The notes under the pieces: model-generated
What the model saw: the letters and a program-made list of their open reading frames with translations, nothing else
Databases searched by the model: none
What the model was told of the DNA's origin: nothing
Source: a virus
Reading direction: 5' to 3' (one strand)
Virus record (IMG/VR): IMGVR_UViG_3300029267_002747
Span: 2,325-66,324 of that record
DNA: 64,000 nt
Part shown: one piece after another, positions 7,701 through 52,900 of the stretch
How positions within the stretch are numbered: the stretch's first letter is position 1
Layout: the number at the start of each line of letters is the position of its first letter
Translations under genes and position numbers: made by a program

Positions 7701-8702
7701 ATGGGATTACAAATAGCAGCTATACCCACCAAAAATTATGATAAACGTCGAGAGATCTGTCGATGGGAGATCTCTTATGACAGATACGATATAGAAGACG
7801 CCAAAGAAGCTGTAAACACTATTTTTGATTTGGTTGATTTACACAAATATTTACAGGCTCGTTACCCAAAAAATCGTGTTGAAACAGACCCGAGCAATGA
7901 ATCTGTGGTTGTTTACATGAGGCCAGAGGAAAAGCCAGACCCGGAAAAATTGGCCCTGGACTTAGTGGACTCCTCGGAAACAACCACAAAAGATCTGTTG
8001 GCTGTACGGTATCACATCAAGAAATTTTCCACTTTAATAGCGGTTGTGAAAAAATATATCGAACTTGAACCAAATGGTGCATATCCTGCCAACATATACA
8101 GACTGACAGATGTGTCAGAGGATGAATTTGGGAACAAACTTTCCACATACTCGGTCGCCAGACGCAAATACCTGCAAAGAGTCTTTGCTAAAGACGGATA
8201 TTTCTTGAACCTTAACACCCATCACATATCGAAAAATGCGTCAAAGGCGAAAGCTGCAATGACTCGCCAAGGTTACGGACCAAAGAAAAAGTCCAAACCC
8301 CGAAAAGACAGAATAACGAAAATCAAGAAATATGCTTTGTGGTCTTTAGCCTATATTATGAGACACCACATAAGAAAAGTTTTCGCGGATGAAGAATGGG
8401 GTTGGTTTATCCAAGTACATGATTTTGCGTCATCCACCCGAGTAGACCACATCTTATTGTATGCTGTGAAATGCTTTTCCATTCTGCACAAAATGGGAGA
8501 ACTCGGGCGATTAAGACGGGACTCTTCATACATAGATAAAGTTAAAGAAGTCCATAAAGCGAGGGAGTTCCTGAAGAATTGGAAAAATCGCAAAATGCCT
8601 ACCAAAAGTTCCTGGAATAAGTTCAAGCCGGAAGCATTCGATAAATTCCTCGAAATAATGGACAAAGAATACTCACTATTACCGGAGGAAACTACTAAAT
8701 GA
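7701..8702 (+). CDS. hypothetical basic protein
   Basis: ORF 7629..8702; ATG 7701 follows AAGGAG, while the TTG at 7629 lies inside the RNA stem. Confidence 0.75.
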   Translation: MGLQIAAIPTKNYDKRREICRWEISYDRYDIEDAKEAVNTIFDLVDLHKYLQARYPKNRVETDPSNESVVVYMRPEEKPDPEKLALDLVDSSETTTKDLLAVRYHIKKFSTLIAVVKKYIELEPNGAYPANIYRLTDVSEDEFGNKLSTYSVARRKYLQRVFAKDGYFLNLNTHHISKNASKAKAAMTRQGYGPKKKSKPRKDRITKIKKYALWSLAYIMRHHIRKVFADEEWGWFIQVHDFASSTRVDHILLYAVKCFSILHKMGELGRLRRDSSYIDKVKEVHKAREFLKNWKNRKMPTKSSWNKFKPEAFDKFLEIMDKEYSLLPEETTK

Positions 8703-9175
8703 AATATGATTTTGATGACCTCGTGGACGCCGCCAAGGCTGTCCAGAGAAAACGAACAGACAAAAGTAAGCTCAGTGCCTTAACTGAGCTTTACTTCCAC
8801 ATGAATATGGCAGCAGAAGAGCTCAAGAAAGCCAAGAAAGACCTGGCCCGGAAATCTGCCATCTTGCAAAGCGCTGAAGAAATCCTAAAAGGCGTCGCTA
8901 CGCCTATCATAGACAAAGACCCAGGCAAGAAGATCTGCATGGATGTGGATGCAGACATCGGAAAGATGGTCTTGTCAATGACAATTGAGTCTAATCCACC
9001 GCGTGTGGAGGTTTTGGTGGACCCCAAAGACTTACCGGATGAATACCGACGGGTTAAATACGAGGCAGATAAAATTGCTTTGAAGAAAGGGATAACTGCC
9101 GGGAAAGTGTCCCCCGAGCTGGCAAAAATCATCACAAGTAATACACATGTAAGGTTTTCATTGGGCATGCTATGA
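8699..9175 (+). CDS. Siphovirus Gp157-like protein
   Basis: N-terminal coiled coil and C-terminal LPDEYRRVKYEADKIALKKGITAG pattern. Confidence 0.6.
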   Translation: MKYDFDDLVDAAKAVQRKRTDKSKLSALTELYFHMNMAAEELKKAKKDLARKSAILQSAEEILKGVATPIIDKDPGKKICMDVDADIGKMVLSMTIESNPPRVEVLVDPKDLPDEYRRVKYEADKIALKKGITAGKVSPELAKIITSNTHVRFSLGML

Positions 9176-10889: not shown

Positions 10890-12194
10890 ATGGCCGACAA
10901 GGTTCCAGCGTTGGTACAGCGGGTTCTATCAGGACTCTGCCAAGAACCGGAAGATTTTATGCGGCAGGCTTCTTTGGAAGAATTGATCCCTAAGCCATAC
11001 AGACCTATCTACACATACATTGCCGAATACTTCACTCGACATGGGAAAAGTCCAACCTGGACAAAAGTCCGGAAGAATTTCAGGGCAAAATTTGAGTTAA
11101 AAATACAAAAGGTATCGAAAAAGACAGCTTCTGAATTAGTAGAAGAGTTGATTAACGCCAAAAAAGCGGTCCTGGTTCGCCAGGTTTTCGATGCTTTAGC
11201 AGATACCGGAGATATTGAGTCGTGGGAGGATGTCACCCCAAACATAGTTGATGACCTCATATCCAAGATGAAAGACTGTGTCACTACATCTTCCGTACTT
11301 GGCACATATGAATCTGACCATGTTGTATCCTTTGGAGACGGCTCAGATTTAAAAGAACTATACGCCAACATGGAATCTGGGGCTGGTGCTGGGTATCAAA
11401 TGTACTTTAAGGAGCTCTCCGACCCTTTCAATGGGCTCAAGAACGGATCTGTCTACGGCATGTTCGGAGCTCCTGGGGTGAAAAAGACTTTCATCCTGGC
11501 CTTGCAAGCCGCGTATTTTGCGCTGAGTAAAATCCCAACTTTTCTATTCTCATCTGAGATGTCTAGCGAGGAACTTAAGCAGAGAGTCGCAGCGATGCTA
11601 GCTGGTGTTAGTTATGACGGAGTCATCAAAGGAACACTCTCAAAATCTGAAAAAGCCACCTACTATGCATGGTTGGACAGTGATGAAAGAAAAGACCTGG
11701 ATGAATATCTGATCTTTGGTGGACCTACATCTTGCCCGAATTTAGTCGCTTTGGAGAAGATAGTTCGTGAGCACCGGATACATATGATCTGCCTTGACAC
11801 AATAGCAAACATGGCGGATACAGACCAGAACGGAGAAATTGGTTGGATGCAAATCCAGAAGCTGATGAGAGAACTTAATATACTCGTTAAGCGTCATCAA
11901 ATTCCCTGTTTGTATACCAGCCATTTCAACAGGTCTGGTAGCCGTAACAGATCAGGTGTAGCCCATGGTGACGCATTCTTCAAGTACTCCGCCCAAGCCT
12001 GGTCCATATCCAGCAAAGAAGAGACTTCTGTAGACTTTTGTACATTCAAAACCAGAGAATCTTCAGATACAGGTAAGAGATACCTACGCTATAAATTTGA
12101 TCTTTTGAAGGCTGAATTCCGATTCTTCTCCACTGTGGATAAGAGCCGAAAATCAGCCGCTAGTGCAACTATTTCTGGATACGCAGGACGATGA
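10890..12194 (+). CDS. dnaB: DnaB-like replicative helicase
   Basis: Walker A-like GAPGVKKT, FSSEMS, Walker B ICLD, SHFNR, KTRE; immediately upstream of the primase. Confidence 0.82.
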   Translation: MADKVPALVQRVLSGLCQEPEDFMRQASLEELIPKPYRPIYTYIAEYFTRHGKSPTWTKVRKNFRAKFELKIQKVSKKTASELVEELINAKKAVLVRQVFDALADTGDIESWEDVTPNIVDDLISKMKDCVTTSSVLGTYESDHVVSFGDGSDLKELYANMESGAGAGYQMYFKELSDPFNGLKNGSVYGMFGAPGVKKTFILALQAAYFALSKIPTFLFSSEMSSEELKQRVAAMLAGVSYDGVIKGTLSKSEKATYYAWLDSDERKDLDEYLIFGGPTSCPNLVALEKIVREHRIHMICLDTIANMADTDQNGEIGWMQIQKLMRELNILVKRHQIPCLYTSHFNRSGSRNRSGVAHGDAFFKYSAQAWSISSKEETSVDFCTFKTRESSDTGKRYLRYKFDLLKAEFRFFSTVDKSRKSAASATISGYAGR

Positions 12195-13213
12195 AAAAAG
12201 ATACATTCATCCGACTGTGGGAGAGATTTTTCAATGAAACACCGAAGATTAGTGGGGATTGGTTCAAATGCAGATGCATTATGGCACCATACACTTCAGA
12301 CCACAAACACGATGTGGACCAAACCCCTGCTTTGAATATCATCGTAGGGAACAAAACCTCATGGTGTAAATGCTGGGTATGTGGAAAAGAAAAAGGAGAA
12401 CCCCTCTTGACATTCCTGGCAGAATACGCTAAAAGGGCTGGCCGTCCTGGGGTATTGGCTGCTTTTGAAGAAGCTGAAGAAGCAGAAGCTGAAGCCGCCT
12501 CTATTCCCGACTTTATATTCGGTAAAAACACAGGCTCTGCCACAGAAGACACAGACTACACAGACACATTGAAAAAATTAACGGGACAGCCAGACGCTGT
12601 CTTCATGACCAAGAAAGGGATAGACCAGGAAACCTCAAAGTTATTTGGAATAACATCAAATGAAACTGATTTTGAAACACAGAAAGAATTAGGTAGTTAC
12701 TCTCCCGGGATAATCATCCCATACCTCAATCCTGATGGTGATAAATGTGTGGGTCTAAAATATAGACCATATCATCACACAAAAGGTCCCAAATATTGGT
12801 TTGTTGGAAAAATGTCAAAAACTGACAAATTATATGGAGATTGGTTAATCCCAGATGATATTGACCCCAATGATATCGATGATCCTGAATTCAGATTATA
12901 CCTCTGCGAAGGAGAATTGGATGTCATGCACTTTAGGAGGGAAAAGAGATATGCAATAGCTGTAGCTGGATCAGATCTCTCTGAAGAACAAGCGGAGATG
13001 ATTAAATCTCTAACTGATGTAATCTTCGTAGTAGGAGACCCAGATCCAGCAGGAGTGAAATTTTCCAGGAGCGCTCGAAAAACATTGGAAAAAGTGGGCG
13101 TGAAAGCTTACTTGATATTTCCGGAAGTAAATCCTCGAGAACTCACACAAGAACAGATTGACCGTATGTCTGATATTGTTATTCAGGCCGACCAGATGTA
13201 CCAAGATTGGTAA
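12191..13213 (+). CDS. dnaG: DNA primase (Zn finger + TOPRIM)
   Basis: CRC..H..CKCWVC zinc finger; LCEGELD and GDPDPAG TOPRIM motifs. Confidence 0.88.
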   Translation: MKKDTFIRLWERFFNETPKISGDWFKCRCIMAPYTSDHKHDVDQTPALNIIVGNKTSWCKCWVCGKEKGEPLLTFLAEYAKRAGRPGVLAAFEEAEEAEAEAASIPDFIFGKNTGSATEDTDYTDTLKKLTGQPDAVFMTKKGIDQETSKLFGITSNETDFETQKELGSYSPGIIIPYLNPDGDKCVGLKYRPYHHTKGPKYWFVGKMSKTDKLYGDWLIPDDIDPNDIDDPEFRLYLCEGELDVMHFRREKRYAIAVAGSDLSEEQAEMIKSLTDVIFVVGDPDPAGVKFSRSARKTLEKVGVKAYLIFPEVNPRELTQEQIDRMSDIVIQADQMYQDW

Positions 13214-13237
13214 CACCACAGAAAAATAGAGAAAACC

Positions 13238-14455
13238 ATGAATCTGAAAAAATTACAAAGCTTCGCCTCTAGCTATGAAGAAGAGGTCCAGAAAGCCGGA
13301 GCAGGGAACTCCAGATTTGATTTTCCTGGTGCAAAGGAAAGACGAAAATTCTACATCAAGGAAGTCCTTAATGTAAAAGGTGCTATGACCAGGAAAATTA
13401 TATTGCTCGATGAACCCATCACATTAGCAGTTCACGAAACTGTTGTAGGGGCGGGTAAGAGTGGTAAAGGTCCATTCGCCCTGAAGGAATATCATCGATG
13501 CTCCAAATCCGAAGTGGATGATGATTTCAAAGTGGAAACATTCCAGGACAGAGACTGCTTCTGCTGCACTTCTCGAGTCGACAGTGTTAATCGACTTATC
13601 CGAGTGGTTATAATCCCCATCTTAGTTGAGCCGTTCCCTGTTATCGGAGATAGAGGCCCGTCTATGTACGGACCTATGGTGTCACATCTTATTCTCCCAC
13701 CGTGGGGGCACACCAAGAGTGTCTTCAAAGATATAATCTTAGAAAAGATGATATCCTACAAGGCTCAAAAGGGTCTACGCTTCCAAGTCAAACGAGCCGA
13801 GGAAGATCCTCGTTCTATTGGTAATCATTGGGAAATTGACGCGATGGATCCAGTGTGGGAGCCAAAGAAAATCGCGGCTTACATGAAGGAACACCACGAT
13901 CCTGAAAATGGTGTTAATCTTAATATTGCCTCTATAGATGCGGCATTCCCAATGCTCAACCCAGATCAATGGAAGAGCATACTCCAGAAGCATTGTGAAG
14001 TCTGCCAGGCCCACCCAGGACTCTGGAAGAATTTAACAGGTCTAGAGGCCGGAGCGTCCGGAGGGACTTCTCCTAAAACCTCTGGCGGAGATAAAGACTT
14101 AGATCTGAGTTCTTTAAACCTGGATGATGACCCAGATTTTGGGGACGATGATGATGACTCTAACCTCTCCATCGAAGAACGTATGATCCAGGCTGTAGGT
14201 ATCAACAAAGATGCTTTGACGCCTTACGACGAAGATGAGGAAGAGGAAGAGGAAGAGACTCTAGAAGAAGAATCAGAGCAACCTCTGGTCCTCGAATTTG
14301 ACGGCTACGGCTATCTGGATCAAGATGGCGCAGCTTATGAAGAGGACGGCACCCCAATTCTAAACGAAGACGGTGAACACCTTGTTTACGAAATGGACGA
14401 AGATGAATTGGAAAGATTCGAAGAGGAAGAGCCTTTCACACTCCCAAAAGAATAG
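13238..14455 (+). CDS. probable single-stranded DNA-binding protein with Zn motif and acidic tail
   Basis: Lies between primase and polymerase; HRC...DCFCC motif; long D/E-rich C-terminus. Confidence 0.6.
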   Translation: MNLKKLQSFASSYEEEVQKAGAGNSRFDFPGAKERRKFYIKEVLNVKGAMTRKIILLDEPITLAVHETVVGAGKSGKGPFALKEYHRCSKSEVDDDFKVETFQDRDCFCCTSRVDSVNRLIRVVIIPILVEPFPVIGDRGPSMYGPMVSHLILPPWGHTKSVFKDIILEKMISYKAQKGLRFQVKRAEEDPRSIGNHWEIDAMDPVWEPKKIAAYMKEHHDPENGVNLNIASIDAAFPMLNPDQWKSILQKHCEVCQAHPGLWKNLTGLEAGASGGTSPKTSGGDKDLDLSSLNLDDDPDFGDDDDDSNLSIEERMIQAVGINKDALTPYDEDEEEEEEETLEEESEQPLVLEFDGYGYLDQDGAAYEEDGTPILNEDGEHLVYEMDEDELERFEEEEPFTLPKE

Positions 14456-14477
14456 ATCCAGAGCCGCCAACTCTGGA
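14443..14477 (+). promoter_or_regulatory. putative -1 programmed ribosomal frameshift signal
   Basis: C_CCA_AAA slippery heptamer in frame (14443-14449), 7-nt spacer, TCCAGAG-ccgccaa-CTCTGGA hairpin. Confidence 0.65.
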
Positions 14478-14769
14478 ACTATATCCTGACCCAACAAATG
14501 GGAATCTGATCTACATTGATGAAGGTGACGGCCAATTTCCTGTTGTTAAAATTCCTGGTCCCGGAGAAGAAAGCATCTGGGTGTCTTATACAGAATATGT
14601 ATTTGATCCAGAAACAGGCCAGAGGACCGGGGAAGTTCACAAAATGAGCTCAAATGAAAAAGAATTTCATAAAGCTCAATGGGAATCAACCCAAGCCAAC
14701 ATTGATACTGATGGAGATGTGGTTGGCAACTCCGACGCCGGAGACAACATCTTCGCCCCACTAAAATAA
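14449..14769 (+). CDS. -1 frame C-terminal extension of the SSB-like protein (106 aa)
   Basis: Frame is open from 14407 with no ATG/GTG/TTG until 14581; acidic sequence resembling the SSB tail (RIDPEPPTLELYPDPTNGNLIYIDEGDG...). Confidence 0.6.
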   Translation, partial: RIDPEPPTLELYPDPTNGNLIYIDEGDGQFPVVKIPGPGEESIWVSYTEYVFDPETGQRTGEVHKMSSNEKEFHKAQWESTQANIDTDGDVVGNSDAGDNIFAPLK

Positions 14770-14781
14770 TTATGCGGCATC

Positions 14782-14816
14782 AGGGGAGCTCAGACTAAAG
14801 ACTCTGCAGCTCCCCT
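14782..14816 (+). promoter_or_regulatory. stem-loop upstream of the DNA polymerase gene
   Basis: AGGGGAGCT-CAGA...TCTG-C-AGCTCCCCT, ending about 10 nt before the AAGGA SD; no U tract. Confidence 0.5.
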
Positions 14817-14837
14817 CAATCCTATAAGGATTATTAA

Positions 14838-17123
14838 ATGAGAACATTAGAAAAATTCTTGAAGGCTATAGAGAAATCCAGAGTCTTCTCATTAGATACG
14901 GAATGTGAAGGAGTAGGTACTGGATCTGCTCTCGATACAGCTACAAACAAACTGACCCTAGTTACATTAGCGTGTAACAGAGCTGTGGCTCATATAGAGC
15001 CTAACACCCAAATATCATTAGACGCTATTCGGTTCCTACTTACATCAGATTCCATCTGTGTTATGCATAATGCCGCATTTGACACAAAAGTCCTTCACAG
15101 GCATGTTCTACCTATGGAAAAATGGAGAGTGACTATTGTGGATACAATGGTGCTTTCTTGGATAGTAGATCCTCGTGGAGCAGGCTCAGGTTTGGTCCCG
15201 GATCATAGGCTCAAAAAGCTAGTCAAAAAATACCTGAATTACACCATGGTAGAATACAAGGAAGTTACTAAAGAACTTCCAGCAGCTCAGTGCAAGATCG
15301 ACGCTCATTTAAAAGCTTCAAAAATCCACAGGTTACATGATGCCGCTAAGTTTGAAAAAGCCAGGGCCAGTCATGAACGAAAGATCAGGAAACATAGGAG
15401 ACTAAGAATCCAACCAAAATTGGCTGAGATTAAGGAAAATAAGATAGGTATGACTAAGAAGGAGCAGGCCGCTGCTCGTAAAGAGTTGAATAAATACCAT
15501 AAAGATTTCCGCCTAGATCCTGATACGTTTCGGCAGCATATGAACAATAAGCTGAAAAGGTACCACAACCTGTATCTAGAAGCAGAGAAAGAACTTAAAC
15601 CTGCGTTTATTGCCTACGCCGAAGATGACGCTCGACAGACTCTACGGTTGTATCGACACCTTGAATCTAAACTCAAAAACAAGGAGATGACTTGGTGGTC
15701 CTTCATTGAGAGCAGTGTGCTACGAGTGATCCTTGATACCGAGAAAACCGGGATAAGAATTGACAGAGCCAAAATTCGACCTCTGTACTTTAAGGTGCAG
15801 AATATGATTGATGCGCTTGGTGCAGATCTTAAAGACATGGCTCCATTCGATCTCAACCCAGATAGATCTCGAGATATTAGTCGGATGGTCTACAACGTCA
15901 GAAAATTGATCCCGATTGAAAGAGCCGTCGAAACTAGGCCTTCCTTAAAGCGAAGGGCAAAAGACTCGACAGTTCGGGCAGAATACTCTATCGCGAAAAA
16001 GATTCTTTCTAAGCACGATAGTGATGAATTTGTCGCTAAGTACCTGGAGAGAAATTCCTTGAAAACGTTGCGGAATTCCTTCATCCGGAAACTGGGGTTT
16101 GAACTTAACGGGAATATTCAGTACACCCGCTTCAAACCGACAGGGACGAAAACTGGGAGATTTACTTCCGCAAACCCATCCCTTCAACAAATTCCATCCA
16201 GGAACAAAGAGCTAGCGATCCCTATTCGAGAAGCTTTTATCAACAGACCAGGTACACAATTGATAGTCGCAGATTTATCGCAAATCGAACTGCGAACTGC
16301 AGGGGTTGTTGCTAACGATCCATCTTTAATAGAAATCTACAACCGACATGAATTTGATGCAGAAGGGCTCAAAGTCTTTACTGCGGACGTTCACGAAGAG
16401 ACTAGAATAGCTATTGGTTATGATGAGAGCTATAGGTGGCTTGCCAAAAATTGTAATTTCGGATTACTCTACGGTGGCAGTGCTGGATTGCTGCACCACC
16501 TGACCAAGATACCAGTGCCAGAATGCGAAGAAATTCGCGAGAAATTCTTCACAAAATACCCGGCCCTGGAGACTACTGTTGATATGCTCGGATCTTGCTA
16601 TAGAGGAGGGATGCGATCCTTTAGTATCCCGTTCTCTGGCAGGGTCAGGATATGGGACGGCTCAGCTGAAGCTTCTCCTGGGCAAATTTTCAACACAATG
16701 GTACAAGGATCAGCCGCAGACATGCTTAAAGCTCAGATCCATTATTTCTGGTGGTTCTGCGTAAGACACCGCCCGGAATGGGACGCACACATGCTGCTCC
16801 AAATCCATGATGAAGTTGTGTGGGAAGTGAATGAAGAATACGCTGAAGAAGCTGCGTATGCCTTGAAGTATGTAATGGAGTTTCCCTGGTGGAAGCTGCC
16901 TCTACCTATCCAGGCAGATGTGAAAATTGGTCCAAATTGGGCCATAGGAAAACTAGATGAAGACGATAAGGATTATCCTTCATTGAAACTCAACAAAGCC
17001 AGAATCTCTGCTGCCCAAGAATTGGTGCCTTTGGAGCAACCAATATATAAGCAATACGATGACGACGGTCCTGCTGGGTTAACAGATTATGGGCTCATAA
17101 TGTTGGAAAAAGGCATAATATAA
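14838..17123 (+). CDS. polA: DNA polymerase family A with 3'-5' exonuclease
   Basis: ExoI LDTE, ExoII HNAAFD, ExoIII YAEDDA; TGRFTSANPSLQQIP; motif A ADLSQIELR; motif B RWLAKNCNFGLLYG; motif C QIHDE. Confidence 0.95.
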   Translation: MRTLEKFLKAIEKSRVFSLDTECEGVGTGSALDTATNKLTLVTLACNRAVAHIEPNTQISLDAIRFLLTSDSICVMHNAAFDTKVLHRHVLPMEKWRVTIVDTMVLSWIVDPRGAGSGLVPDHRLKKLVKKYLNYTMVEYKEVTKELPAAQCKIDAHLKASKIHRLHDAAKFEKARASHERKIRKHRRLRIQPKLAEIKENKIGMTKKEQAAARKELNKYHKDFRLDPDTFRQHMNNKLKRYHNLYLEAEKELKPAFIAYAEDDARQTLRLYRHLESKLKNKEMTWWSFIESSVLRVILDTEKTGIRIDRAKIRPLYFKVQNMIDALGADLKDMAPFDLNPDRSRDISRMVYNVRKLIPIERAVETRPSLKRRAKDSTVRAEYSIAKKILSKHDSDEFVAKYLERNSLKTLRNSFIRKLGFELNGNIQYTRFKPTGTKTGRFTSANPSLQQIPSRNKELAIPIREAFINRPGTQLIVADLSQIELRTAGVVANDPSLIEIYNRHEFDAEGLKVFTADVHEETRIAIGYDESYRWLAKNCNFGLLYGGSAGLLHHLTKIPVPECEEIREKFFTKYPALETTVDMLGSCYRGGMRSFSIPFSGRVRIWDGSAEASPGQIFNTMVQGSAADMLKAQIHYFWWFCVRHRPEWDAHMLLQIHDEVVWEVNEEYAEEAAYALKYVMEFPWWKLPLPIQADVKIGPNWAIGKLDEDDKDYPSLKLNKARISAAQELVPLEQPIYKQYDDDGPAGLTDYGLIMLEKGII

Positions 17124-18571
17124 TGGCAAAGCAATCTAATGCAAAATCCAAAGTGGAGGCTCCGACCACCCGACAACCGGAGAAAGCAAAGGGTATAATT
17201 GAATCTTTGAACACAAAGTTCAAGCAGAGCTATATCTCCGATATCGGGGATAGAATTGTATCGTCCTTTGTGAGGTATCCATCTTGGTTTATAGACTTAG
17301 ATATTGCCCTGAGCGGCGGCTATATGTACGGCAAAATTCTTCAACTATGGGGTTATCCCCAGAGTGGGAAATCAACTTTGGCGTACAGATTAGCCGCCTC
17401 AGCTCAGCAGTTTTGCCACAGTTGTTTCACTCCTATCGTTGAGTTCATGAACTTTGAGACAGGAGAAACTAAAACAACATGTCTTTGTGGAAAATGCAAC
17501 TCGGGTCAAGTCCTATTCTTAGCTACTGAGGACAGATTTGATTCGGACTGGGCGCTCTTAAATGGGGTAGATGTAAACAATGGCTTCATAACAGCTTTAG
17601 CCCCAACCATAGAGATCGCAGCAGATATCCTGGAAGAACTTGTGATCCATAAGGCCTGTGATTTAGTTATCATAGACAGCATGGCAGCTCTGATGCCAGA
17701 AAACTATATCGGAAAAGCTGTTGACGGACAGAAACTTGGAGCGCACGCCGCAGGACTCCAGAATTTCCTTAGTAGATTTTTGAGCGCGAACTCGAAAACC
17801 GGTATGGAGATCGCCCCGGAAGTCCGAGAGACATTCAATAAACATAAACCTGGCCTACCTCCGCCACCTATCCGCACGACCTTAATTGGCACAAACCAGG
17901 TAAGATCAAAGATAGGTGTCGCATTTGGTAGCCCAGATGTTCCTTGTGGGGGGCATTTCTTGAAGCACGCCATCACCCAATCTATCCGAATGTTGTCACC
18001 CACAATTAACGATAACATAGATTCCAAACTTGTGACCGGTAACGTGCTGGCTGATTTCACCGGCAAAATAGACAAAGCCACAAACGGAGGATCAGCTGGC
18101 GGGAAAGGTACGTACAGAATATGGACTGATGATTATAAAACAAATAAAATTGGCGATACAGGCGAACCGGCCCGGTTACTCGCCTTACTGAAGTACTTTG
18201 GGATTATCCGTAAAGAGAAGAGTGGCTATGTTTTTGCTGGACGGACATGGAAAGCCCAAAAAGATATAAAGACTGCGTTGAACTATAAAGGCATGCAGTT
18301 ATTTGCTCGTTGGGTCATCTTTTCCAATTACCTCAATGCGGCAGGAAAACTGAGTACTAAGTTCGTCGATTATGACTACAACCCATATTACCGCATAGTT
18401 CAAAAAGGAACTTACACTTATGGCGAAGTCACATTACCAGAATGGGTCCTCGAACCCAGAGTCGGCGCTGGAAAAAGCGATGGCGGAAGTAAACCCGAAA
18501 CTTCTGGAGGAATACCAGAAAAGAAAAGACGAGGCCGGCCGAAAAAGGCGAGAAGCGAGAGCGAAGCATGA
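17123..18571 (+). CDS. recA: RecA/UvsX-like recombinase with Cys-rich insertion and C-terminal AT-hook-like motif
   Basis: LDIALSGG, GYPQSGKST, IIDSMAAL, NQVR, GGHFLKH; CHSC...CLCGKC; RRGRPKK. Confidence 0.9.
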   Translation: MAKQSNAKSKVEAPTTRQPEKAKGIIESLNTKFKQSYISDIGDRIVSSFVRYPSWFIDLDIALSGGYMYGKILQLWGYPQSGKSTLAYRLAASAQQFCHSCFTPIVEFMNFETGETKTTCLCGKCNSGQVLFLATEDRFDSDWALLNGVDVNNGFITALAPTIEIAADILEELVIHKACDLVIIDSMAALMPENYIGKAVDGQKLGAHAAGLQNFLSRFLSANSKTGMEIAPEVRETFNKHKPGLPPPPIRTTLIGTNQVRSKIGVAFGSPDVPCGGHFLKHAITQSIRMLSPTINDNIDSKLVTGNVLADFTGKIDKATNGGSAGGKGTYRIWTDDYKTNKIGDTGEPARLLALLKYFGIIRKEKSGYVFAGRTWKAQKDIKTALNYKGMQLFARWVIFSNYLNAAGKLSTKFVDYDYNPYYRIVQKGTYTYGEVTLPEWVLEPRVGAGKSDGGSKPETSGGIPEKKRRGRPKKARSESEA

Positions 18572-19507: not shown

Positions 19508-20788
19508 ATGAAAACTTCCATCTACTCAGAAGGTACAGTCAGGGTGAAAAACCCAGACTACAACCTTATCCAAAAAGCCAAAAAAGAACTGTCATACACC
19601 AGCAAATGGGAAGATGGAAGTTCTATTGAGGCGTACCAATGGGATCAACAGAAAAAAATCCTGAGACTTCCTCGGTATTGGAAACATACACCGAAACCTC
19701 GGCAGCTTAAAGAACCTATGCATTTTGACAGTGAATATCCATTCCTGGGTAAGCTATTCCCCCACCAAGCAGAGAGTTGGCCGCATCTTAAGGATGCGCT
19801 CGATAAATTGCGAGGGGCTGTAGGGACTGCTCCCCCGGGTAGTGGTAAGACTGTTATGGGCCTGTATGCTATCCACGATCTGTGCCCTCGACGAGCTATT
19901 ATTGTCGTTGACACAGACTCAGTGAGACGCCAGTGGATAGCAGCAGGCCATAGATTTCTTGATGTAGAGATCAAGAAATTAAAATTTGATGCGCCTATTA
20001 CAGAAGGCATATGGGTGACAACTTATGCCGCTATGGCTAAACACCCGGAACTCTGTCATGAGGCAGAATTAATGATATTAGACGAGGCGGATAAGGTGTC
20101 CGCCCCTAAATTTGTTAACACAATTTTCGGAATCAATTTCAGGATATCCCTGGCCCTTACCGCTACGCCAGATCGACAAGATAACTTGGATATTGTATAC
20201 CGAATTATGGCTGCACCTCTTTTGGTGCCGCTAGGAAGCAACAGCTTCACACCAGAAGTTCATATGGTTCCTTACGTGCATGATTATGGGTACGGAAAGT
20301 ACCTCATGGGTAAGGATAAATTCCTCAGGATTTTGGCCTTATCGAAAAATCTTGAGAGAAATGACTGGTTGGTAGAAATGATATATCGGGCTCATCAAAG
20401 AGGTCGAAAAATCATTGGACTATCAAAATACAAACAACAACTTTACAACATACAACAACTACTTAAGGATAAACATGGAATCAACGCCGGAATGTACACC
20501 GGAGACCAATCTCAATCAGAACTTGAGAAGTCAAAACAATGTAATGTTATCTTGGCTACAAGCCAAAAAGGCGGACGAGGCCTCGATATCCCGGACCTCG
20601 ACGCTCTTGTGCTGTTGGTCCCTCACTTGGATGCTCGACAGCAAATTGGGAGGATTATGCGGCCCAAGGGTAAAACCCCGCAAGTCCTAGACCCGATTGA
20701 TTACAATATAGCTAATTTAGAAAACCAGGCCCTGGCTAGAAAGAAAATCTACCAGGAGTCTGGTTATATTATCCACCAAGGAGATTAA
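19508..20788 (+). CDS. superfamily 2 DNA helicase (UvsW/ResIII-like)
   Basis: APPGSGKT, ILDEAD, LTATP, RGLDIP, QQIGRIMR. Confidence 0.92.
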   Translation: MKTSIYSEGTVRVKNPDYNLIQKAKKELSYTSKWEDGSSIEAYQWDQQKKILRLPRYWKHTPKPRQLKEPMHFDSEYPFLGKLFPHQAESWPHLKDALDKLRGAVGTAPPGSGKTVMGLYAIHDLCPRRAIIVVDTDSVRRQWIAAGHRFLDVEIKKLKFDAPITEGIWVTTYAAMAKHPELCHEAELMILDEADKVSAPKFVNTIFGINFRISLALTATPDRQDNLDIVYRIMAAPLLVPLGSNSFTPEVHMVPYVHDYGYGKYLMGKDKFLRILALSKNLERNDWLVEMIYRAHQRGRKIIGLSKYKQQLYNIQQLLKDKHGINAGMYTGDQSQSELEKSKQCNVILATSQKGGRGLDIPDLDALVLLVPHLDARQQIGRIMRPKGKTPQVLDPIDYNIANLENQALARKKIYQESGYIIHQGD

Positions 20789-37865: not shown

Positions 37866-39533
37866 TTAATCTACAGGAGGTTTTTCCTTGCCTTTGAAAG
37901 CTTTTGTGACTTTATCCACGACAGGTTTAGTCTTCTCTACAACCTTACTGACTGCAGGAGATGCTACACCTTTTGCCTTTCCAAACATGGCAGGCAATGC
38001 ATGCATAATGCCAGCTGTACCAAAGCCTGTCAGAATTGGGTGCTTGGCAATGAATCTCTGTAAAACATTGAGATCTTTACCATGTTCTGCAGCCCCTCGA
38101 AGTCCAGCAGAACCCAATAAACCTATACCCAATCCAGATAATGTCCGACCTGTCGGAATATCTGAGAAATAACCTGCCGTAGCTCGCACTGGGGCGAACA
38201 AAGCGGACCCAATACCAGCTTGCTTAGCTAAGGTCTCTGGGGGGAAGACCAAATGAGCTACTTCAGGTATGTCAAAATGGGAAGCGAATTTTTCACACCA
38301 CTCTGAATCGGAAAAACACCTATAAATTAATTTATCTATTTTTGAATTATACGTAGCTTCTTTTACCCCATCACTTCTGTCCAATTCAATTAGTCGATCA
38401 GAAAGATAGGGGTCTAGCATAGAGCTAGACTTCATTAAAGGAGCTAAATTCATAAGTTCTTTTAGGTCCGGCATCGGACACCCACATGAGTCGGGAATAT
38501 CTTCATCTTTAAGACCGGCCTGCCTAGCCTCTTCCCCTGTTGGAAAGATGCCAGCATGAAGCAAGTCAGATAGTCTATTTTCAAAAGGTCTATCTTTCTT
38601 GCTGATAATCATAATGACCGTACGTCTTACCGGTCTGGAACCTTCATCCTTTGGGAGGTCTTTGCTGAGATGCTCGACAACTTTCTCTGGTACCGCATCA
38701 GCCTTAACTGGGACTTCCTTATCTATATCTGCTTCCTTCTCGTCCGCTACCTTGGGCAGTGGAACTGGGACCACAATAGATACCTTGCCAGCAGGAACAT
38801 TGAACATGGGTTTCTGTTCTCTGGCAATCTTATGCAGAGTAAGGGCCTGCGGGTCTGCGCCTCTCTTGACCCAGGACATATCAAAGAATTTCGGATATGG
38901 ATTAATTGCGTAATTCTTAGACCCATCGGGGTGGATTCTATTCATCGCCAGCTTCAGGTGGTCGCAGTATTCGCTCCTGTTCTTGGCCTTGTTATGACAC
39001 TTGGAACAGATGTCATAGGCGACCTTAGTACCCATGGACCAGGCCAGATCCTCTCCATTGTCGATAGCTTCACAAGCATCCGGGGCCAGCGCTCTCTTAA
39101 TAAATACCACTGTCTCGACCCTGTGCATTTTATCATTGTAGGCTGCGTACTTGATCTGCTCGCCGATGGTATGCTTGGGATCATGGTTTTTATGATTCCG
39201 ATATGGATAGGCGTACTTCTCGAAAGTGCCGTATCCGTAATCAGCGCCGGACTTGACCAGGTGGGGTTCTCCGTTGATGTACTCAGGGAATGCATCCCCG
39301 TTGCGGTTACTCCCCCAGGCCTCAGCACCTCCTAGTCCGTGAACCAGGAGGTGGTGGCCATCATCCCTAGGCGTGATGTTTGCAATGGCGATTTTGATAC
39401 GGTCCGGAATATAGATTTCCGAAGCAATCTTTTCGTATTGCCTGGTAAACAGTGGGACAGTCCATGGTTCATCATCCAATAATGAAGCCGGGACTATTTT
39501 CCCACTTACCGCAAAATCGTCGAAAGTCGCCAT
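37866..39533 (-). CDS. prohead maturation protease (HK97/assemblin-type Ser protease) with Zn insertion and long C-terminal extension
   Basis: NRNGD, RNH (His), WSMG (Ser), CSKC...CDH insertion, FFDMSWVKRGADPQA resembling the E-x-S-x-V-x-x-P-A-x-x-x-A motif; upstream of scaffold and capsid genes. Confidence 0.75.
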   Translation of the reverse strand: MATFDDFAVSGKIVPASLLDDEPWTVPLFTRQYEKIASEIYIPDRIKIAIANITPRDDGHHLLVHGLGGAEAWGSNRNGDAFPEYINGEPHLVKSGADYGYGTFEKYAYPYRNHKNHDPKHTIGEQIKYAAYNDKMHRVETVVFIKRALAPDACEAIDNGEDLAWSMGTKVAYDICSKCHNKAKNRSEYCDHLKLAMNRIHPDGSKNYAINPYPKFFDMSWVKRGADPQALTLHKIAREQKPMFNVPAGKVSIVVPVPLPKVADEKEADIDKEVPVKADAVPEKVVEHLSKDLPKDEGSRPVRRTVIMIISKKDRPFENRLSDLLHAGIFPTGEEARQAGLKDEDIPDSCGCPMPDLKELMNLAPLMKSSSMLDPYLSDRLIELDRSDGVKEATYNSKIDKLIYRCFSDSEWCEKFASHFDIPEVAHLVFPPETLAKQAGIGSALFAPVRATAGYFSDIPTGRTLSGLGIGLLGSAGLRGAAEHGKDLNVLQRFIAKHPILTGFGTAGIMHALPAMFGKAKGVASPAVSKVVEKTKPVVDKVTKAFKGKEKPPVD

Positions 39534-39561
39534 AATATCCCTCTAACTTTAAAAATTGACC

Positions 39562-39777
39562 TCAATCCACATTCTTCAGAGAAAGTAATGCAAATTTCAA
39601 TTCTTCGTGTAATTTCCTCTTGGATTCTTTTTTCGACTTAATCGCAGGGTCTGCAGCTGCAAAAGTCGTTGGAACTTCCATTGTGCCTTCGACAGGATCG
39701 ATATATTGCGTCTTATGCGCAGCAGGAGTCGCTTCAGAAGCATTGGCTGTAGAAGATTCCCTATCAATAGATCTCAT
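39562..39777 (-). CDS. small hypothetical protein
   Basis: 71-aa ORF coupled by TAATG to the upstream gene. Confidence 0.6.
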   Translation of the reverse strand: MRSIDRESSTANASEATPAAHKTQYIDPVEGTMEVPTTFAAADPAIKSKKESKRKLHEELKFALLSLKNVD

Positions 39778-40364
39778 TAAAATAGCTTCCCTGCTGAAGT
39801 AAGACCCTTGGCCGCTGATTCGTAAACATCGGCGGAAGGTGTTCTGAGTTTCTGGACATCCACGAGCCTCTTCAAAAGATCTGGGGTGATAGCAGATTCG
39901 CCCAAACTTTGGAGCTGAATAAGTATCGCCGAAGCTGCTGTAGGTTCACTAGCTATAGCTGGGGCAAAGTGCATAAGCAGCTCAAAATTTCGAGCTGTCT
40001 GTTCTGGATCTCTGGTCAGAGCCGGAGTTCTTCGGAGAACTTCTCTTAAAGCCCTTTCCAGTTGCCCCTTAGTCCTAGTGTTTTTATAAATCTTTCCTAT
40101 AGCAGGTGCCAAACCAAAGCCTATCCCTAAAGAACCAATGATAGGTTTCAGCCAGGCGCTCTTCTCAACCATCGCTATACCTTGAAGATGTGAGAAAATT
40201 CTTTCTTTTGCTTCTTTGGAGAAGTCTTTAAATGCTTCTTGAATTACCTCGGTGACTAGGTCTTCTCCTTGAAGTGCCGCTAATTTAATAGCTGCTCGGA
40301 TTTTGGGGAGATCCGGGATCTCGACCTCGTTTTCGTGGAACATTGCGTATTTTTCAAACAGCAT
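39777..40364 (-). CDS. KxA-motif virion internal protein with hydrophobic segment
   Basis: KYA, KLA, KEA, KSA followed by WLKPIIGSLGIGFGLAPAIG. Confidence 0.65.
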   Translation of the reverse strand: MLFEKYAMFHENEVEIPDLPKIRAAIKLAALQGEDLVTEVIQEAFKDFSKEAKERIFSHLQGIAMVEKSAWLKPIIGSLGIGFGLAPAIGKIYKNTRTKGQLERALREVLRRTPALTRDPEQTARNFELLMHFAPAIASEPTAASAILIQLQSLGESAITPDLLKRLVDVQKLRTPSADVYESAAKGLTSAGKLF

Positions 40365-40373
40365 AATATATCC

Positions 40374-41915
40374 CTACATGCGATCCATTCTGTCCTCAAA
40401 GCCGCCGATACCTGTTCCGTATGGATTAACTCCGCCAGGAACCGCACCTTCACGCGTTATTTGAGAAGAACCAAAAAATTGAGGACTCTCAGGACGTAAC
40501 CCAACATCTGCGATATCCCCCAAAAATTGAGACCCCATACTTAGCAGGCCTGCCCCAGCAAGTAATTTAGGAATTTTAAGCTCATGCCAAACAGTATTGG
40601 GTATATGTTTAATGCCTTTAATAGCTCCACTTACAGTCTTGTCTTTCATGTCTTTAATATCCGCCGAAGATGTAGACTGAATTCTATCTCCGACGGTTTT
40701 CAATTTTTTTCCCAGGTTCTGGCCAGCGCCTTGCAGCCATTCCTTTCCACCTGAAAGTATATCTTTGAATCCCCCACCTTCGGCAATTTTCTCTAGAACA
40801 TCCCCCGTTTCGTCCTCCCCTAGAATAGCTGAGAGACCCATACCAAGCATCATAGCAAACTTGGAAAGTTCGGCCTCTCTATCTGAGGCGGTCTTCGCAG
40901 GCTCTTTAGAGTTCATGCACCCCAGAACATTGTCCGATTCTCTACGGATTGTTCTAAGGTTATTCAGCTCATACTGGCTGACATTCTCGGTGTTGTTCAG
41001 CTTATAAATGGCACGGGCTATGCCAAAATTCGCTCCTCGATATGATTTCGCTCCTCCAAGAATCTCTTTTCTATCGTAATCGGTATTTTTCATATCGTCG
41101 ATCACAATAACCAAACCATGCTGTTGGTTGGCTTTGGTCGGATTCTTTAAGTCAGAATAATCTGATTTATCGAGCTTCTTCTCCCCGGTATTTTTGTCGT
41201 CATCATAGTGATGGTAAGTCTTCTCTAACTCCTCAGGCGTCAACGCTATCTTCTGGAGCCTGGTCTGAGCCTCCACAGGAGAAGTACCCATAATAGGCGC
41301 TAGGAGCTCAGCACTCTTCGAGAGTACAACAAAAAGATTCTTTCGAGTTTCATCATCCTGCATAGACGCTAACTTAATAAGTTCATCCATATCAGGATCA
41401 TTAGCGAGCACAGCTTGCTTCACATACCCGAAGATCTTCTGCAGATTTCCATGCTGATGTGCTTCCAAAGCGGCGACCTTACCGTCTGTCCCCCGCAGAA
41501 ACATATTCACATGGTGCTGAATCATTTCCAGATGCTGAATAGCTTCTTTCTTCATCTGCTGACGACGGGCATGGCCTACCGGAAGGATTTCCTTTGAAGC
41601 TTCTTTAAGAAACCCGGGACCTCCAGCCAGCGAAGCAATCTTAACAGAAGACCCCTCAGCAGAGCTATCCAACTTAGATAATATCTTATCTATATTAGCC
41701 AGCTTGAAAACAAATCTCTGGTCTTCAGCTGTCTTCCGAAGTTCGGCGTTGGCTAGATTATTGGTGGCTTCAATTAGCCGCTGAATCTGGAATTGATTCA
41801 GTTCCTTATCCGATGCAATCTTAGCTATGGTTTCGTCTAAGGATGCTTTCTTAGACAAAAGCCCTTCCACAGCTTTAGCAGCATGCATCTGGATCAATTC
41901 TGGCGTTATCTGCAT
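40374..41915 (-). CDS. KxA-rich virion internal/core protein
   Basis: 15 KxA motifs by eye in the first ~380 aa and none in the Gly-rich C-terminal region. Confidence 0.7.
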   Translation of the reverse strand: MQITPELIQMHAAKAVEGLLSKKASLDETIAKIASDKELNQFQIQRLIEATNNLANAELRKTAEDQRFVFKLANIDKILSKLDSSAEGSSVKIASLAGGPGFLKEASKEILPVGHARRQQMKKEAIQHLEMIQHHVNMFLRGTDGKVAALEAHQHGNLQKIFGYVKQAVLANDPDMDELIKLASMQDDETRKNLFVVLSKSAELLAPIMGTSPVEAQTRLQKIALTPEELEKTYHHYDDDKNTGEKKLDKSDYSDLKNPTKANQQHGLVIVIDDMKNTDYDRKEILGGAKSYRGANFGIARAIYKLNNTENVSQYELNNLRTIRRESDNVLGCMNSKEPAKTASDREAELSKFAMMLGMGLSAILGEDETGDVLEKIAEGGGFKDILSGGKEWLQGAGQNLGKKLKTVGDRIQSTSSADIKDMKDKTVSGAIKGIKHIPNTVWHELKIPKLLAGAGLLSMGSQFLGDIADVGLRPESPQFFGSSQITREGAVPGGVNPYGTGIGGFEDRMDRM

Positions 41916-48689: not shown

Positions 48690-49919
48690 TTATCCAGAAG
48701 AAACAGTTCCTGTGACCTGTAAATCACCTTTAATTGTCATACTACCTCTAGATCCATCCGGTCTAGTCATATCAATCTCATAAAATCCTACAGGAACATT
48801 GATTTTAGCCCCGACACCACTGTATGTTGAGATAGAAATACCCGCCACGTTAGTGGTCAGCGCCCCTGTGTAATTCTGTGTCTCGAGCCCAGGTGCAGCT
48901 AAAACCTCTTTATTTGTCGATGCTTGTGTAATAATCGGGGCTCCGATATTTATCGAGACCTCTGATGTCACATTGACAGCTGCTACAGACCCGATATTCA
49001 CCGGCAGAGTTCCGTCAACAGAGATACCTGAGGGACCTATAGTCACAGTTCCACCTAAAGAATGTGACAAAGTAACCCCGTCATCCGCAACTGTCACTGA
49101 AGCTTCAGCGCCTGTAACACCTTTGTTTAAGGTGATTCCAGTAAGCGGCGATATTTCTACAAGAGTTGCTCCTGTCTCTACCGTATACGTACCGGACTCA
49201 GCTGCAAAAGTTTGGCGAAGAACTTGACCTATACGTGCTAAAAAACCACCTTCTGTCCGGGATTCAATAACGGTTTCCGTGATAGGCTGTCCAGGATAAG
49301 GATTTTGCGTCAACCTAACTTCAGGTGTGGGCAATTTCGCAGAACTAAGACTACCCAGAGCTGAAGGCAACCCGGCCTCAAAACGAAAACCTGGTACACT
49401 TAAAACGTACCTTTTGCACAAGTCTTTAATCTCTCTGGATTTTTTATTAAAGAACCGAAGACATCCAGCAGCCGCCCTAATCAAGATAGACCCGCTACGC
49501 AACACATGCACGAAGCTACGTCTATTCCGTGTCCCCATAAATTGATCTTCGGCCTGAATAATTTTTTCAGAATTCGGGGGTCTATACCGTGGAACATCGA
49601 TGTCTCTAGGATCTTCTAACAGAGCCGAGATTGCGGCATCTACAGCGTTAGTCGAAGGTTCTGAACCAGAAGAGTTAACCGTCGGTAACTCCCCCAGGAT
49701 TACCCATCGAGAAGTGGATAGACTAACCAAAATAACCGAGGCATTTTTTGGATATGGGGAGATATTCCCTAATTTTATGGCTCCAGCCTGAACTGAACGA
49801 GGGCCATTCAAAATATCAACAATGTAAACTTCTTTGCTGGAGTCGTAAAATCTAACAACCCCTTCAGCTCCAGTCAACCCAGCAAAAGATCCGCTACTCG
49901 TGTTCCAATAAGAATTCAT
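48690..49919 (-). CDS. baseplate central spike (gp5/GpV-like)
   Basis: N-terminal OB-fold-like segment ending WVILG; C-terminal beta-helix-like V/T/G repeats ending IKGDLQVTGTV. Confidence 0.65.
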   Translation of the reverse strand: MNSYWNTSSGSFAGLTGAEGVVRFYDSSKEVYIVDILNGPRSVQAGAIKLGNISPYPKNASVILVSLSTSRWVILGELPTVNSSGSEPSTNAVDAAISALLEDPRDIDVPRYRPPNSEKIIQAEDQFMGTRNRRSFVHVLRSGSILIRAAAGCLRFFNKKSREIKDLCKRYVLSVPGFRFEAGLPSALGSLSSAKLPTPEVRLTQNPYPGQPITETVIESRTEGGFLARIGQVLRQTFAAESGTYTVETGATLVEISPLTGITLNKGVTGAEASVTVADDGVTLSHSLGGTVTIGPSGISVDGTLPVNIGSVAAVNVTSEVSINIGAPIITQASTNKEVLAAPGLETQNYTGALTTNVAGISISTYSGVGAKINVPVGFYEIDMTRPDGSRGSMTIKGDLQVTGTVSSG

Positions 49920-52900
49920 TATTTAGTTTTGTCTCCATATCCAAAAGCAAATTGGGTCACAGGGTGACCTTTAGCTATATCGGATTCTAAACCTAAAGCT
50001 GGAGCGTCAGCGAGATGCTTCGGCAACCTCTGGAACATCAAAGGACTTATAAAATCGTTCCTGGCAAATGGGGCCCTCTTGATCCCCAGGAGCACTGGTT
50101 CAACATTTATTTTATTTTTCAGCTTCTTGTTGAAGCTGTCAATTAGATTTGCATTTACGACTTCACCTTCGACAAGTCCGTGCTTGAATCCGTCCCCTGG
50201 ATCCATAATCTTGACCTTGTCCGTCATAGGTTTTATCACAGTCTCGAAAACTCTTTGCCTAACATTGATTCCTGAATCGGAGTATGCATGATTTAGGTCT
50301 GTGAGCAACTGTTGCTGCCCAGCATCTCTTCCTGCAAGAGCTGTAAGCTGTACTGGATGGATAACCCCTTCGTTAGAAAGCTTATCTCCAGCCTTAACTC
50401 TCTGTCCTACTTTGACACCCAAACCTAATTCCTGGGGAACAAAATAGGTTTTCCCATCAATCACCACATCCCACCCATGTCCAGGACTCTGGTTGACAGC
50501 CGCTACTAGACCGTCCATTTCTGCTAAAGGTGCTTGACCTTTCATATGTGCAGGTAAAGCCAAAACTTGTTGTATCCTTTTGAAGCCTAATTCTTGGCCG
50601 CCAGCAGCCCCGCCTGTATGGAATGCTCGCATAATAGATTGCATAGTAGGTTCAGAAATAGCTTGGCCCGCCAAAGCTCCGATATGTGTCCCGATAGGAT
50701 AATCAGTACCGTGTTCAGATAGTCCTGCACATTTCTGACATATACCATCCAAAGCCTGACATTTAATCGCAGACCTAACTTTTATCTGTCTCTTCCCCTG
50801 CTTTTTCAAGGTGGTGATCAACCGAGGCGTGATTAATTTATTCCTATGTGGAGCATCTGCGGCGTACCTATCAAGAATGTCATCGTGGTCTAAAGACATA
50901 ACTATGCCGTCTCGTACCCCACAGTCCGTAGTCGTAATTCTAGTGTCTAACGTAGTATTAAGCAGCTCTTTGCCGAAGGCTCCGGTATCTCTAGTACCTA
51001 AAGCCCTACCAGCAACACCAGCTCTAGACGGGGCGAAAGAAGCAAAATATTGGTCAGGCTTAAGCCCTTCAGCAAAAGACCTATCCACAGGCATCGGAAC
51101 CATCTGACCTTTGTGGTCATTGTACGCTACAGGAGCTAGAATCATCTGACGGATATTGTCACGCTTTCCGGCCATAGCTTCGGATTCTGTACCCATTTCC
51201 ACAAAACGATTTCCCTCGGTATTTACCTTCATGAGGTCATTAAGTTCCTTAATCCCTCTCTGAAAAGCGTCGTGGTATCCGAGTCTTGTCATATCTCGAA
51301 CCATTTTACGAAGGATTCGCTTCCTCTGGTTATCTTTGAATTTCAAATCTTTCAAGGACACAGAAAAACCTAATTCAGTAACATATGTGTTTCCGATATC
51401 TTTAATCTGATTAACAACCGAACCCAACATCTCTGGGTGTTCTTTGGCTACTTCTTCAATCAATCCAGAGACCTTCTTAGCTGTCAAAGGTTGATACATG
51501 TCATATTCGATATCTTTAGGGAATATACCACGAACAAGAAAAGCCCCGGCTGTCACGGGCTTACCTCTGTAAGAAATTCGATCATTAATTCTGATCTTTC
51601 TATCTCTCAGTAATTTCAAAGCCTCCGCACCATGTTTCACTGTAATATTTGTAGGTCTCACAGGCTTTGTTATCTTGTAGATCCCTAAGTACATCTCTTT
51701 GGCGGGCTTGTGCTCAACGGTCCTGGTTCTGTGCCCCATAAAGTTCTTAGAAGGAAGATTTTTGAGTGCTTCCTTACGGGCCTTCTCGCTAACCGGAACG
51801 TGAACAGCCGCTGTATCCCCGTCGAAGTCCATATTAAATCCGCCAACGATTAGAGCGTTGGCTTCCATAGCCAAACCATCTGTAAGCCTGGGCTTGAAAC
51901 TTACTGCGGAGAATTTGTGGAGAGTTGGAGCTCTATTCAAAATTACAGGTCTGGTCTTCATCTCCTCCTGAAGTGCCTTCAAAGCAGGTTCGGTTCTATT
52001 TTTAACCTGATCTTTAGCTGTTAACGGGTCCATACCGGCCCCCACTAACCTGCGTATAATGAAAGGCTCATAAGTCTTAAATGCAATCTTCTTGGGTAAA
52101 CCCATTTCATCCATACCTAATTCAGGATTTGGGATGAGTGTAGATCGTCCGGACAAATCTACAGGTCTGTGGAGTAATTTGCCCTGGAATAATCCTGTCT
52201 TGTTTCTCTTACCAGCTATGGCACTGATGAATCCTTTAAATTCCCTGCCTCTGGTAAGCGGCTCAGATAACCCAATCGTTGCACTTACTGCGGAGTAAAT
52301 ACCCTTTCTTAAGGGCTTGATGTTAGTGTCATCTACACCCAGATTCTTTAGATTTTTCATCTGGTCATTTACCAGCATAACCTCACGATATGCGTGGTTG
52401 GGGTCACCTACCACAAGCTGGCCTTCCGCATTATTATATACAGGACGGAATTTTGGCGGAATGACTGGAAGATGCTTCATCATGTAAGCATCCCCAGGTT
52501 TCATCTTCATCTTACTTAGAGAAGAAAGATACCTCAATTTCGTCAGCATCTTAGGCTTAGATGTCTTTGTGGCTGTAGGTAGAGCGTTTCTAATCTTGTT
52601 GATCTCATTAGGTACATTGACTTTACTCAATAAGTACTCAATGGCTGGACCTCCGGTTAATTCTCCCTCAGGACCAGATGCATCTAATTTAAGGTCTTTA
52701 ACACTCATATCCCCAGATACAATTTTATTGTACTGCGTGGCTGTGAGGCCCAAAATAGATGCTATGGGTCTCTCGTAAAGCGGGTGTGGAAGCTTTTCTG
52801 AAAGAGTAATATGATTTATATTTGTCCCATTGTACCCACCAGTTAACTCTTTGTCGAATAACCCACCCTTCTCAGGTTCTAGGTCCTTGGCCCTGATAGT

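Follow-up and report, generated by a model that had tools for sequence, protein, structure and literature searches.

In the dnaX gene of Escherichia coli, an A_AAA_AAG heptamer with an upstream Shine-Dalgarno (SD)-like element and a downstream hairpin reportedly directs -1 frameshifting, and the resulting isoforms, tau and gamma, are said to differ in their C-terminal protein-interaction region. In gene 10A/10B of phage T7, a -1 slip near the 0-frame stop gives some of the molecules an additional C-terminal domain. A review of frameshifting (PMC5009743) describes the same for phage lambda G/GT, where the slip occurs a few codons before the 0-frame stop. Here we analyse gene X, an open reading frame (ORF) on a 64,000-nucleotide stretch of viral DNA (the window), taken from bases 2325-66324 of a linear IMG/VR virus record that is 66,324 bases long and an estimated 34% complete. 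The source of the window is probably an uncultured phage of ~190 kb. Programmed -1 ribosomal frameshifting, by which gene X would encode isoforms of 405 and 510 amino acids (aa), is in our judgement reasonably probable: the anatomy of the putative signal, a coding-like -1 frame, C-terminal homology within that frame and a frame break that is real in the DNA all point to it.

Gene X resembles dnaX in combining a replication protein, two isoforms that would come from one mRNA, and an X_XXA_AAR heptamer ahead of a stem-loop. The proteins are unrelated, and the outcomes are opposite: in dnaX the shift soon meets a stop and gives the shorter product, whereas in gene X it would give the longer one. 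The 0-frame stop of gene X lies one codon past the slip site, a lay-out as in lambda G/GT. Both lambda G/GT and T7 gene 10, however, are structural or assembly genes whose signal is conserved across many phages, whereas gene X is a single case and belongs to a replication module.

The last codons of gene X are CTC CCA AAA GAA TAG. They contain, in the X_XXY_YYZ phase of the ORF, the heptamer C_CCA_AAA, on which both tRNAs can re-pair in the -1 frame. The heptamer falls in the class V_VV.A_AA.R, whose members are among the most efficient in E. coli, and C_CC.A_AA.A is among the motifs that shift by more than 0.10% even without a stimulator in that organism (PMC4066793). A perfect hairpin follows at 7 nucleotides (nt), the usual distance and within the range of 5-9 nt from the heptamer. 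Its strength is modest: -9.0 kcal/mol alone and -12.3 kcal/mol when extended by the four extra pairs that are possible, reaching 14452-14482. The folding energy of 14450-14485 is -13.3 kcal/mol (z -4.60), a value equalled by 1 of 200 shuffles. An Rfam search of 14300-14900 returned nothing relevant. Heptamer, 7-nt spacing and 7-bp hairpin had all been proposed in a preliminary description of this DNA, and each coordinate was confirmed by reading the DNA. The same description had pointed out GAGGAAGAG upstream of the heptamer. This stretch is indeed present, at 14423-14431, but we give it no weight because it is merely part of a Glu codon run; in this respect, too, the GAGG upstream of the gene X heptamer differs from the element in dnaX.

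How often would such an arrangement arise by chance? A census of 54 long ORFs, which together comprise 19,496 codons of the window, yielded 82 in-phase X_XXY_YYZ heptamers, 52 of them with A or T as Y. Only one of the 82, namely 14443-14449, is followed at a distance of 5-9 nt by a perfectly paired stem of 7 bp or longer; over both strands of the window, the background of such a stem at this spacing is 508 of 127,880 positions (0.40%). The joint occurrence of heptamer and stem is rare by chance. Behind the 82 heptamers, the -1 frame runs without a stop for 8 codons in the median and for 33 at the 95th percentile, compared with 106 in gene X. A second candidate from the census, T_TTG_GGC at 39906 with 112 open -1 codons, was rejected, since a small ORF that has an ATG of its own accounts for it. 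This minus-strand ORF (39568-39776, ~69 aa) was missed by the ORF list with its 80-aa threshold; its ATG overlaps the stop of gene 39777..40364 (TAATG), and it fills a 244-nt gap ahead of gene 37866..39533. As a separate observation, an in-phase G_GGA_AAA_AAA run on the minus strand (40704-40713, inside ORF 40374..41915) holds two overlapping slippery heptamers, and the 45 nt downstream of it are the most stable of all 82 (-17.4 kcal/mol). The -1 frame behind this run is shorter than 24 codons, so a shift there would truncate the protein.

From the sequence, we infer that ribosomes shift at this site at some rate and that the phage makes use of both proteins. The majority of ribosomes would translate CCA AAA GAA, terminate at TAG and release the 405-aa protein. 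The others would be held up at the hairpin, and the tRNA-Pro in the P site (CCA to CCC) and the tRNA-Lys in the A site (AAA to AAA) would slip back by one base. The slipped ribosomes would then read the -1 frame to 14769 and make a protein of 404 + 106 = 510 aa that carries a further C-terminal module.

The -1 frame has the character of coding sequence. Behind a TGA at 14404-14406, no stop interrupts it from position 14407 until its TAA, and the ORF list and the translation agree with the preliminary description in giving it 106 codons, a stop at 14404 and no standard start before 14581. A codon-usage log-likelihood trained on the long ORFs of the window and calculated for pieces of 44 codons has an in-frame mean of 0.229 (standard deviation 0.10) and off-frame values of -0.33 and -0.42. 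In the -1 frame, this score is 0.209 for 14449-14580, ahead of any start, and 0.14 for 14581-14769, while the other two frames are negative over the extension. Gene X is hence overlapped by a long, coding-like -1 ORF that lacks its own start ahead of 14581.

Homologues of X are few. An exhaustive phmmer search with residues 1-280 against 1.84 billion representatives matched, apart from X, only two proteins, P0003 (570 aa; 35% identity, E 5.4e-32) and P0004 (516 aa; 26% identity, E 3.2e-07). Both are distant homologues and single continuous ORFs. P0003 aligns with X over residues 24-370 (E 5e-47), and its residues 437-506 align with residues 28-92 of the -1 translation (P0001), with 21/72 identical positions (blastp E 1e-5) and the motif EFHKAQW versus TIHKKQW inside the alignment. 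In a tblastn comparison of P0003 with positions 13000-15000 of the window, residues 24-351 match the frame of 13238, and residues 437-509 match the frame of 14449, at 14488-14691 (E 1e-4). Residues 452-494 of P0003 resemble both the -1 extension and the 0-frame tail of X; between these two, no significant internal repeat was detected (best E 0.054, to an unrelated region). The C-terminal similarity of P0004 to the -1 frame is not significant (E 0.05 to 3.7). Its junction SPLTL...LEELYDQLENGN compares with PFTL...LELYPDPTNGN at E 0.25 to 3.7, which is suggestive only, and by eye its stretch RFEENGSPLTLDVEDLEELYDQLENGN parallels RFEEEEPFTL of the 0 frame followed by LELYPDPTNGN of the -1 frame. 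If this parallel is real, the frame change would be confined to the codons CCA AAA GAA.

The surroundings of the gene tell a similar story. Gene X sits within a replication module, between a Toprim primase and a family-A DNA polymerase (PolA). P0003 lies on a contig of 178,574 bases (L003) in the order DnaB-like helicase, Toprim primase, P0003, PolA, RecA-like; P0004 lies on a contig of 195,108 bases (L002) in the order DnaB-like helicase, 352-aa ORF, P0004, PolA. From the stop of the X homologue to PolA there are 13 nt in L002 and 53 nt in L003. In the window, the corresponding distance is 68 nt from the -1 frame stop and 382 nt from the 0-frame TAG, the latter being the largest gap between ORFs of at least 80 aa in the window. 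A strong hairpin follows the P0003 stop in L003 (6723-6751, z -4.95), and a GC-rich strong one follows the -1 stop, not the 0-frame stop, in the window, marking the gene end as in L003. The segment 14770-14840 that contains it folds at -26.2 kcal/mol (z -3.95). It has no clear U tract behind it, and a terminator scan flagged the hairpin at this locus on the minus strand only, where no gene runs. Given the C-terminal homology of P0003 in the -1 frame, the gene order, the distance to PolA and this hairpin, we take the 510-aa product to be the counterpart of the relatives' full-length protein, whose sizes (570 and 516 aa) compare with 510 aa for the shifted product. L003 itself is NCBI contig JAJCZB010000071.1 (range 111842-123551), titled as a metagenome-assembled genome (MAG) of a Candidatus Dependentiae bacterium. 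It shares the helicase-primase-X-PolA-RecA-like module with two IMG/VR viral contigs and is for this reason probably a large phage or prophage contig that was binned into the MAG.

Table. Features of gene X, its putative frameshift signal and its neighbourhood (positions of the window)
Feature	Position	Strand	Remarks
Gene X	13238..14455	+	0-frame ORF, 405 aa; ends ...PFTLPKE and TAG (14453-14455)
Slippery heptamer C_CCA_AAA	14443-14449	+	X_XXY_YYZ phase of ORF 13238
-1 frame extension	14449-14769	+	106 codons and TAA (14767-14769); begins RIDPEPPT...
Spacer	14450-14456	+	7 nt; includes the 0-frame TAG
Perfect hairpin	14457-14477	+	7-bp stem, 7-nt loop; TCCAGAG 14457-14463 / CTCTGGA 14471-14477
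First standard start in -1 frame, GTG	14581-14583	+	gene callers begin a 62-aa ORF (P0005) here
GC-rich strong hairpin	14782-14816	+	between -1 frame stop and PolA start (14838)
Mu Gam-like gene	8699-9175	+	
DnaB-like helicase	10890-12194	+	
Toprim primase	12191-13213	+	
PolA	14838-17123	+	family-A DNA polymerase with 3'-5' exonuclease
UvsX-like recombinase	17123-18571	+	
Further helicase	19508-20788	+	

All genes around X lie on the plus strand. In the structural half of the window, a very large minus-strand ORF (49919-56932) encodes 2,337 aa.

The frame break is present in more than one assembly. The exact 405-aa protein is recorded on four contigs, from JGI/IMG, Logan and ENA. Four sequencing runs (X1-X4) contain 99% of the sampled words of 13238-15238; runs X5-X7 have small or zero shares, and the contig comparison is that of X1-X4. 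Logan contigs of these four show 0 gaps over the frame-break site. The contigs of X1 and X3 have 0 other letters across 13238-14959, and those of X2 and X4 cover the whole 13238-15238 stretch with a single difference, A>T at 14960. The same A4 sequence, at a depth of ~10-15, is thus obtained with a second assembler and from another population that differs slightly. That the X1/X3 contigs break at 14960, where X2/X4 carry A>T, suggests a polymorphic site near the PolA start. The preliminary description had recognized that a base lost in assembly would undo the frameshift; since the Logan contigs of all four runs show the same sequence without indels, assembly error is unlikely.

But could the break be real and yet not programmed? 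A recent one-base deletion, for example from A5 to A4, may have cut short a gene of ~510 aa that was continuous in the ancestor. In that case, the 405-aa protein would be the sole meaningful product and the downstream frame a young, undecayed remnant, with heptamer and hairpin coincidental or good only for an adventitious, low-level rescue. We regard this as unlikely, even if several observations lend it substance and weigh against programmed frameshifting. P0003 and P0004 are single ORFs, and no heptamer was found at the matching place of either gene. The signal may hence not be conserved, and a recent mutation would give the same picture. Nor was a close relative sharing the break found in viral contigs, metagenome contigs or protein databases: blastn and tblastn of X against 50,697 phage records gave no match, scans of IMG/VR viral contigs with X, the extension and PolA and two scans of JGI metagenome contigs gave no relative, a scan of viral contigs with alignment A1 recovered only L002, and word-indexed protein searches returned only the window's own 405-aa and 62-aa proteins and P0004. 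One-base deletions favour homopolymer runs, A runs included, which makes an A-rich, slippery-looking site likelier under a mutation model. The frameshift hairpin is local and moderate (-9 to -13 kcal/mol), not a large structure: the 118 nt from the heptamer onward reach only z -1.17, and by the minimum free energy of the downstream 45 nt the heptamer at 14443 ranks 13th of 82. There are no tRNA genes within the window. As to the DNA evidence, the contigs of X1 and X3 are of the same size, as are those of X2 and X4, which makes it probable that two data sets were each deposited twice; the four runs are all flagged as possible sources of the window, and contigs mask minority variants such as an A5 allele.

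Several features are nevertheless hard to reconcile with a chance deletion. It would require an in-phase XXX directly before the A run and a perfect 7-bp stem at the right spacing, a stem met at 0.40% of background positions and lying in a fold with z -4.6. At the depth given above, at least two data sets have the truncating genotype as their consensus, and the -1 frame has stayed fully open and coding-like. We therefore continue to favour programmed frameshifting. The preliminary description had named continuous, signal-free relatives as an argument against this reading, and here the evidence cuts both ways: P0003 is homologous to both frames, but both homologues are continuous and lack the signal. 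The frameshift proposed in that description thus gains partial support, its anatomy standing unchanged and now joined by the coding score, the P0003 homology and the reproduced break.

Less probable still, and in our estimation improbable, is a split gene, in which the tail would be translated by coupling or reinitiation from GTG 14581 or from a non-standard start such as ATA 14452. The 62-aa ORF from this GTG is called on four contigs, and a GGAG is present upstream. The GGAG nearest to the GTG, however, ends 14 nt ahead of it, whereas most genes of the phage have an AGGA or GGAG-like motif ~5-10 nt upstream of their ATG; the SD spacing of the GTG is poor. Moreover, the -1 frame has no ATG, GTG or TTG from 14407 to 14580, yet both the coding signal (0.209) and the P0003 homology precede the GTG, the latter starting at 14488, 93 nt upstream of it. 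The other large gap that we examined (39533-39777) is, unlike the one here, filled by an ORF with a normal, TAATG-overlapped ATG.

It is very improbable that a sequencing or assembly indel hides one more base between 14432 and 14452 and that the gene is truly one continuous ORF: the break does fall at a short homopolymer (A4) and the relatives are continuous, but A4 is short for a systematic error, the 405-aa protein is recorded from three assembly sources, and the Logan contigs of the four runs, probably two data sets, are free of gaps at the site. Two further explanations were rejected, stop-codon reassignment because TAG ends 13 of the 54 ORFs and the 0 frame meets a TGA 18 codons later, and transcriptional slippage because the A run comprises only 4 bases. 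Among the runs containing the stretch, no RNA data sets are listed.

What kind of protein is X? It consists of an N-terminal domain of ~275 aa followed by an acidic C-terminal region. The preliminary description had called it similar to single-stranded-DNA-binding proteins (SSB), a label that the searches did not establish. Profile searches of Pfam, PHROGs and PDB with X, P0003, P0004 and the extension returned nothing significant. At a threshold of E <= 1, neither the hidden Markov model (HMM) of the gp32 family (PF08804) nor that of the bacterial-type SSB (PF00436) matched the 66-kb record. The gp32 family is also absent from the Pfam matches of X, P0003 and P0004; for the SSB HMM, the control was positive in 12 of 14 genomes. 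AlphaFold2 models of X reached a predicted local distance difference test score (pLDDT) of 38.8 for X alone and 42.6 with a three-sequence alignment, too low for Foldseek results to be usable: against PDB, the poor model gave 0 matches at E <= 0.001, and against BFVD it gave one uncharacterised Bacillus phage protein at a template modelling (TM) score of 0.27, which is not trustworthy.

That X could be a gp32-like ssDNA-binding protein of the phage is a lead only, to which several features contribute. Like T4 gp32, X is encoded in a replication and recombination module near a UvsX/RecA-like gene and carries a long, acidic C-terminal region. Outside gene X, no gene for an SSB or gp32 could be recognised in the 66 kb, which make up only a third of the genome. 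An H-x-C...C-x-x-C set, found in two of the three X homologues, namely X (13493-13570, residues 86-110) and P0003, but not P0004, may be a zinc site; it resembles the zinc ligand set of T4 gp32. In the ESM Atlas, X has a feature score of 0.85 to a cluster with 18% gp32, a weak lead, and structural TM scores of 0.40-0.52 to viral clusters, some of which have gp32 or Pam3_Gp34 in a minority of their members. For P0003, 21 of 30 named matches fall in a gp32-bearing set (score 0.91), again a lead only; the neighbours include clusters with gp32 in 16-18% of their members. In contrast to T4 gp32, X matches no gp32 or SSB HMM, belongs to no Pfam or PHROGs family and is much longer. The preliminary description had further envisaged two isoforms with different interaction tips, as the two C termini might provide.

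Finally, we would like to place gene X in the context of known frameshift genes. The mechanism is textbook, but this is an unusual class of gene in which to meet it. Annotated cases of programmed frameshifting in tailed phages come almost exclusively from tail chaperones, along with a few capsid genes. Of the 2,476 joined frameshift genes of SEA-PHAGES, 2,397 are tail assembly chaperones and 79 are hypothetical, according to PMC10274946, which also cites the dnaX frameshift. A term search of the accessible portion of the review PMC5009743 found no mention of a primase or of a phage replication case, and we found no description in the literature of a frameshift in a phage SSB-type gene, although supplements might list further cases. 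If programmed frameshifting in gene X is true, a replication-module case would widen the gene classes to be checked in phage annotation. Gene callers now split gene X into ORFs of 405 and 62 aa, leaving 125 nt of coding sequence unannotated.

As to the origin of the arrangement, we tentatively consider it possible, at somewhat below even odds, that an ancestrally continuous gene in one member of a lineage of large uncultured phages became an isoform pair controlled by -1 frameshifting, the gene coding for an unnamed replisome protein and possibly for a very divergent gp32-like SSB. Were this so, the phage would set the ratio of short to long form, the long form carrying an extra C-terminal module, and a dosage device like that of dnaX would have evolved anew in a phage replication gene. 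Programmed frameshifting here, if true, would also mean that a frameshift signal can arise inside a gene that is one uninterrupted ORF in the relatives. It would further offer a handle on an uncharacterised protein family, of which three members were found, that occupies the SSB position in phages of roughly 180-195 kb.

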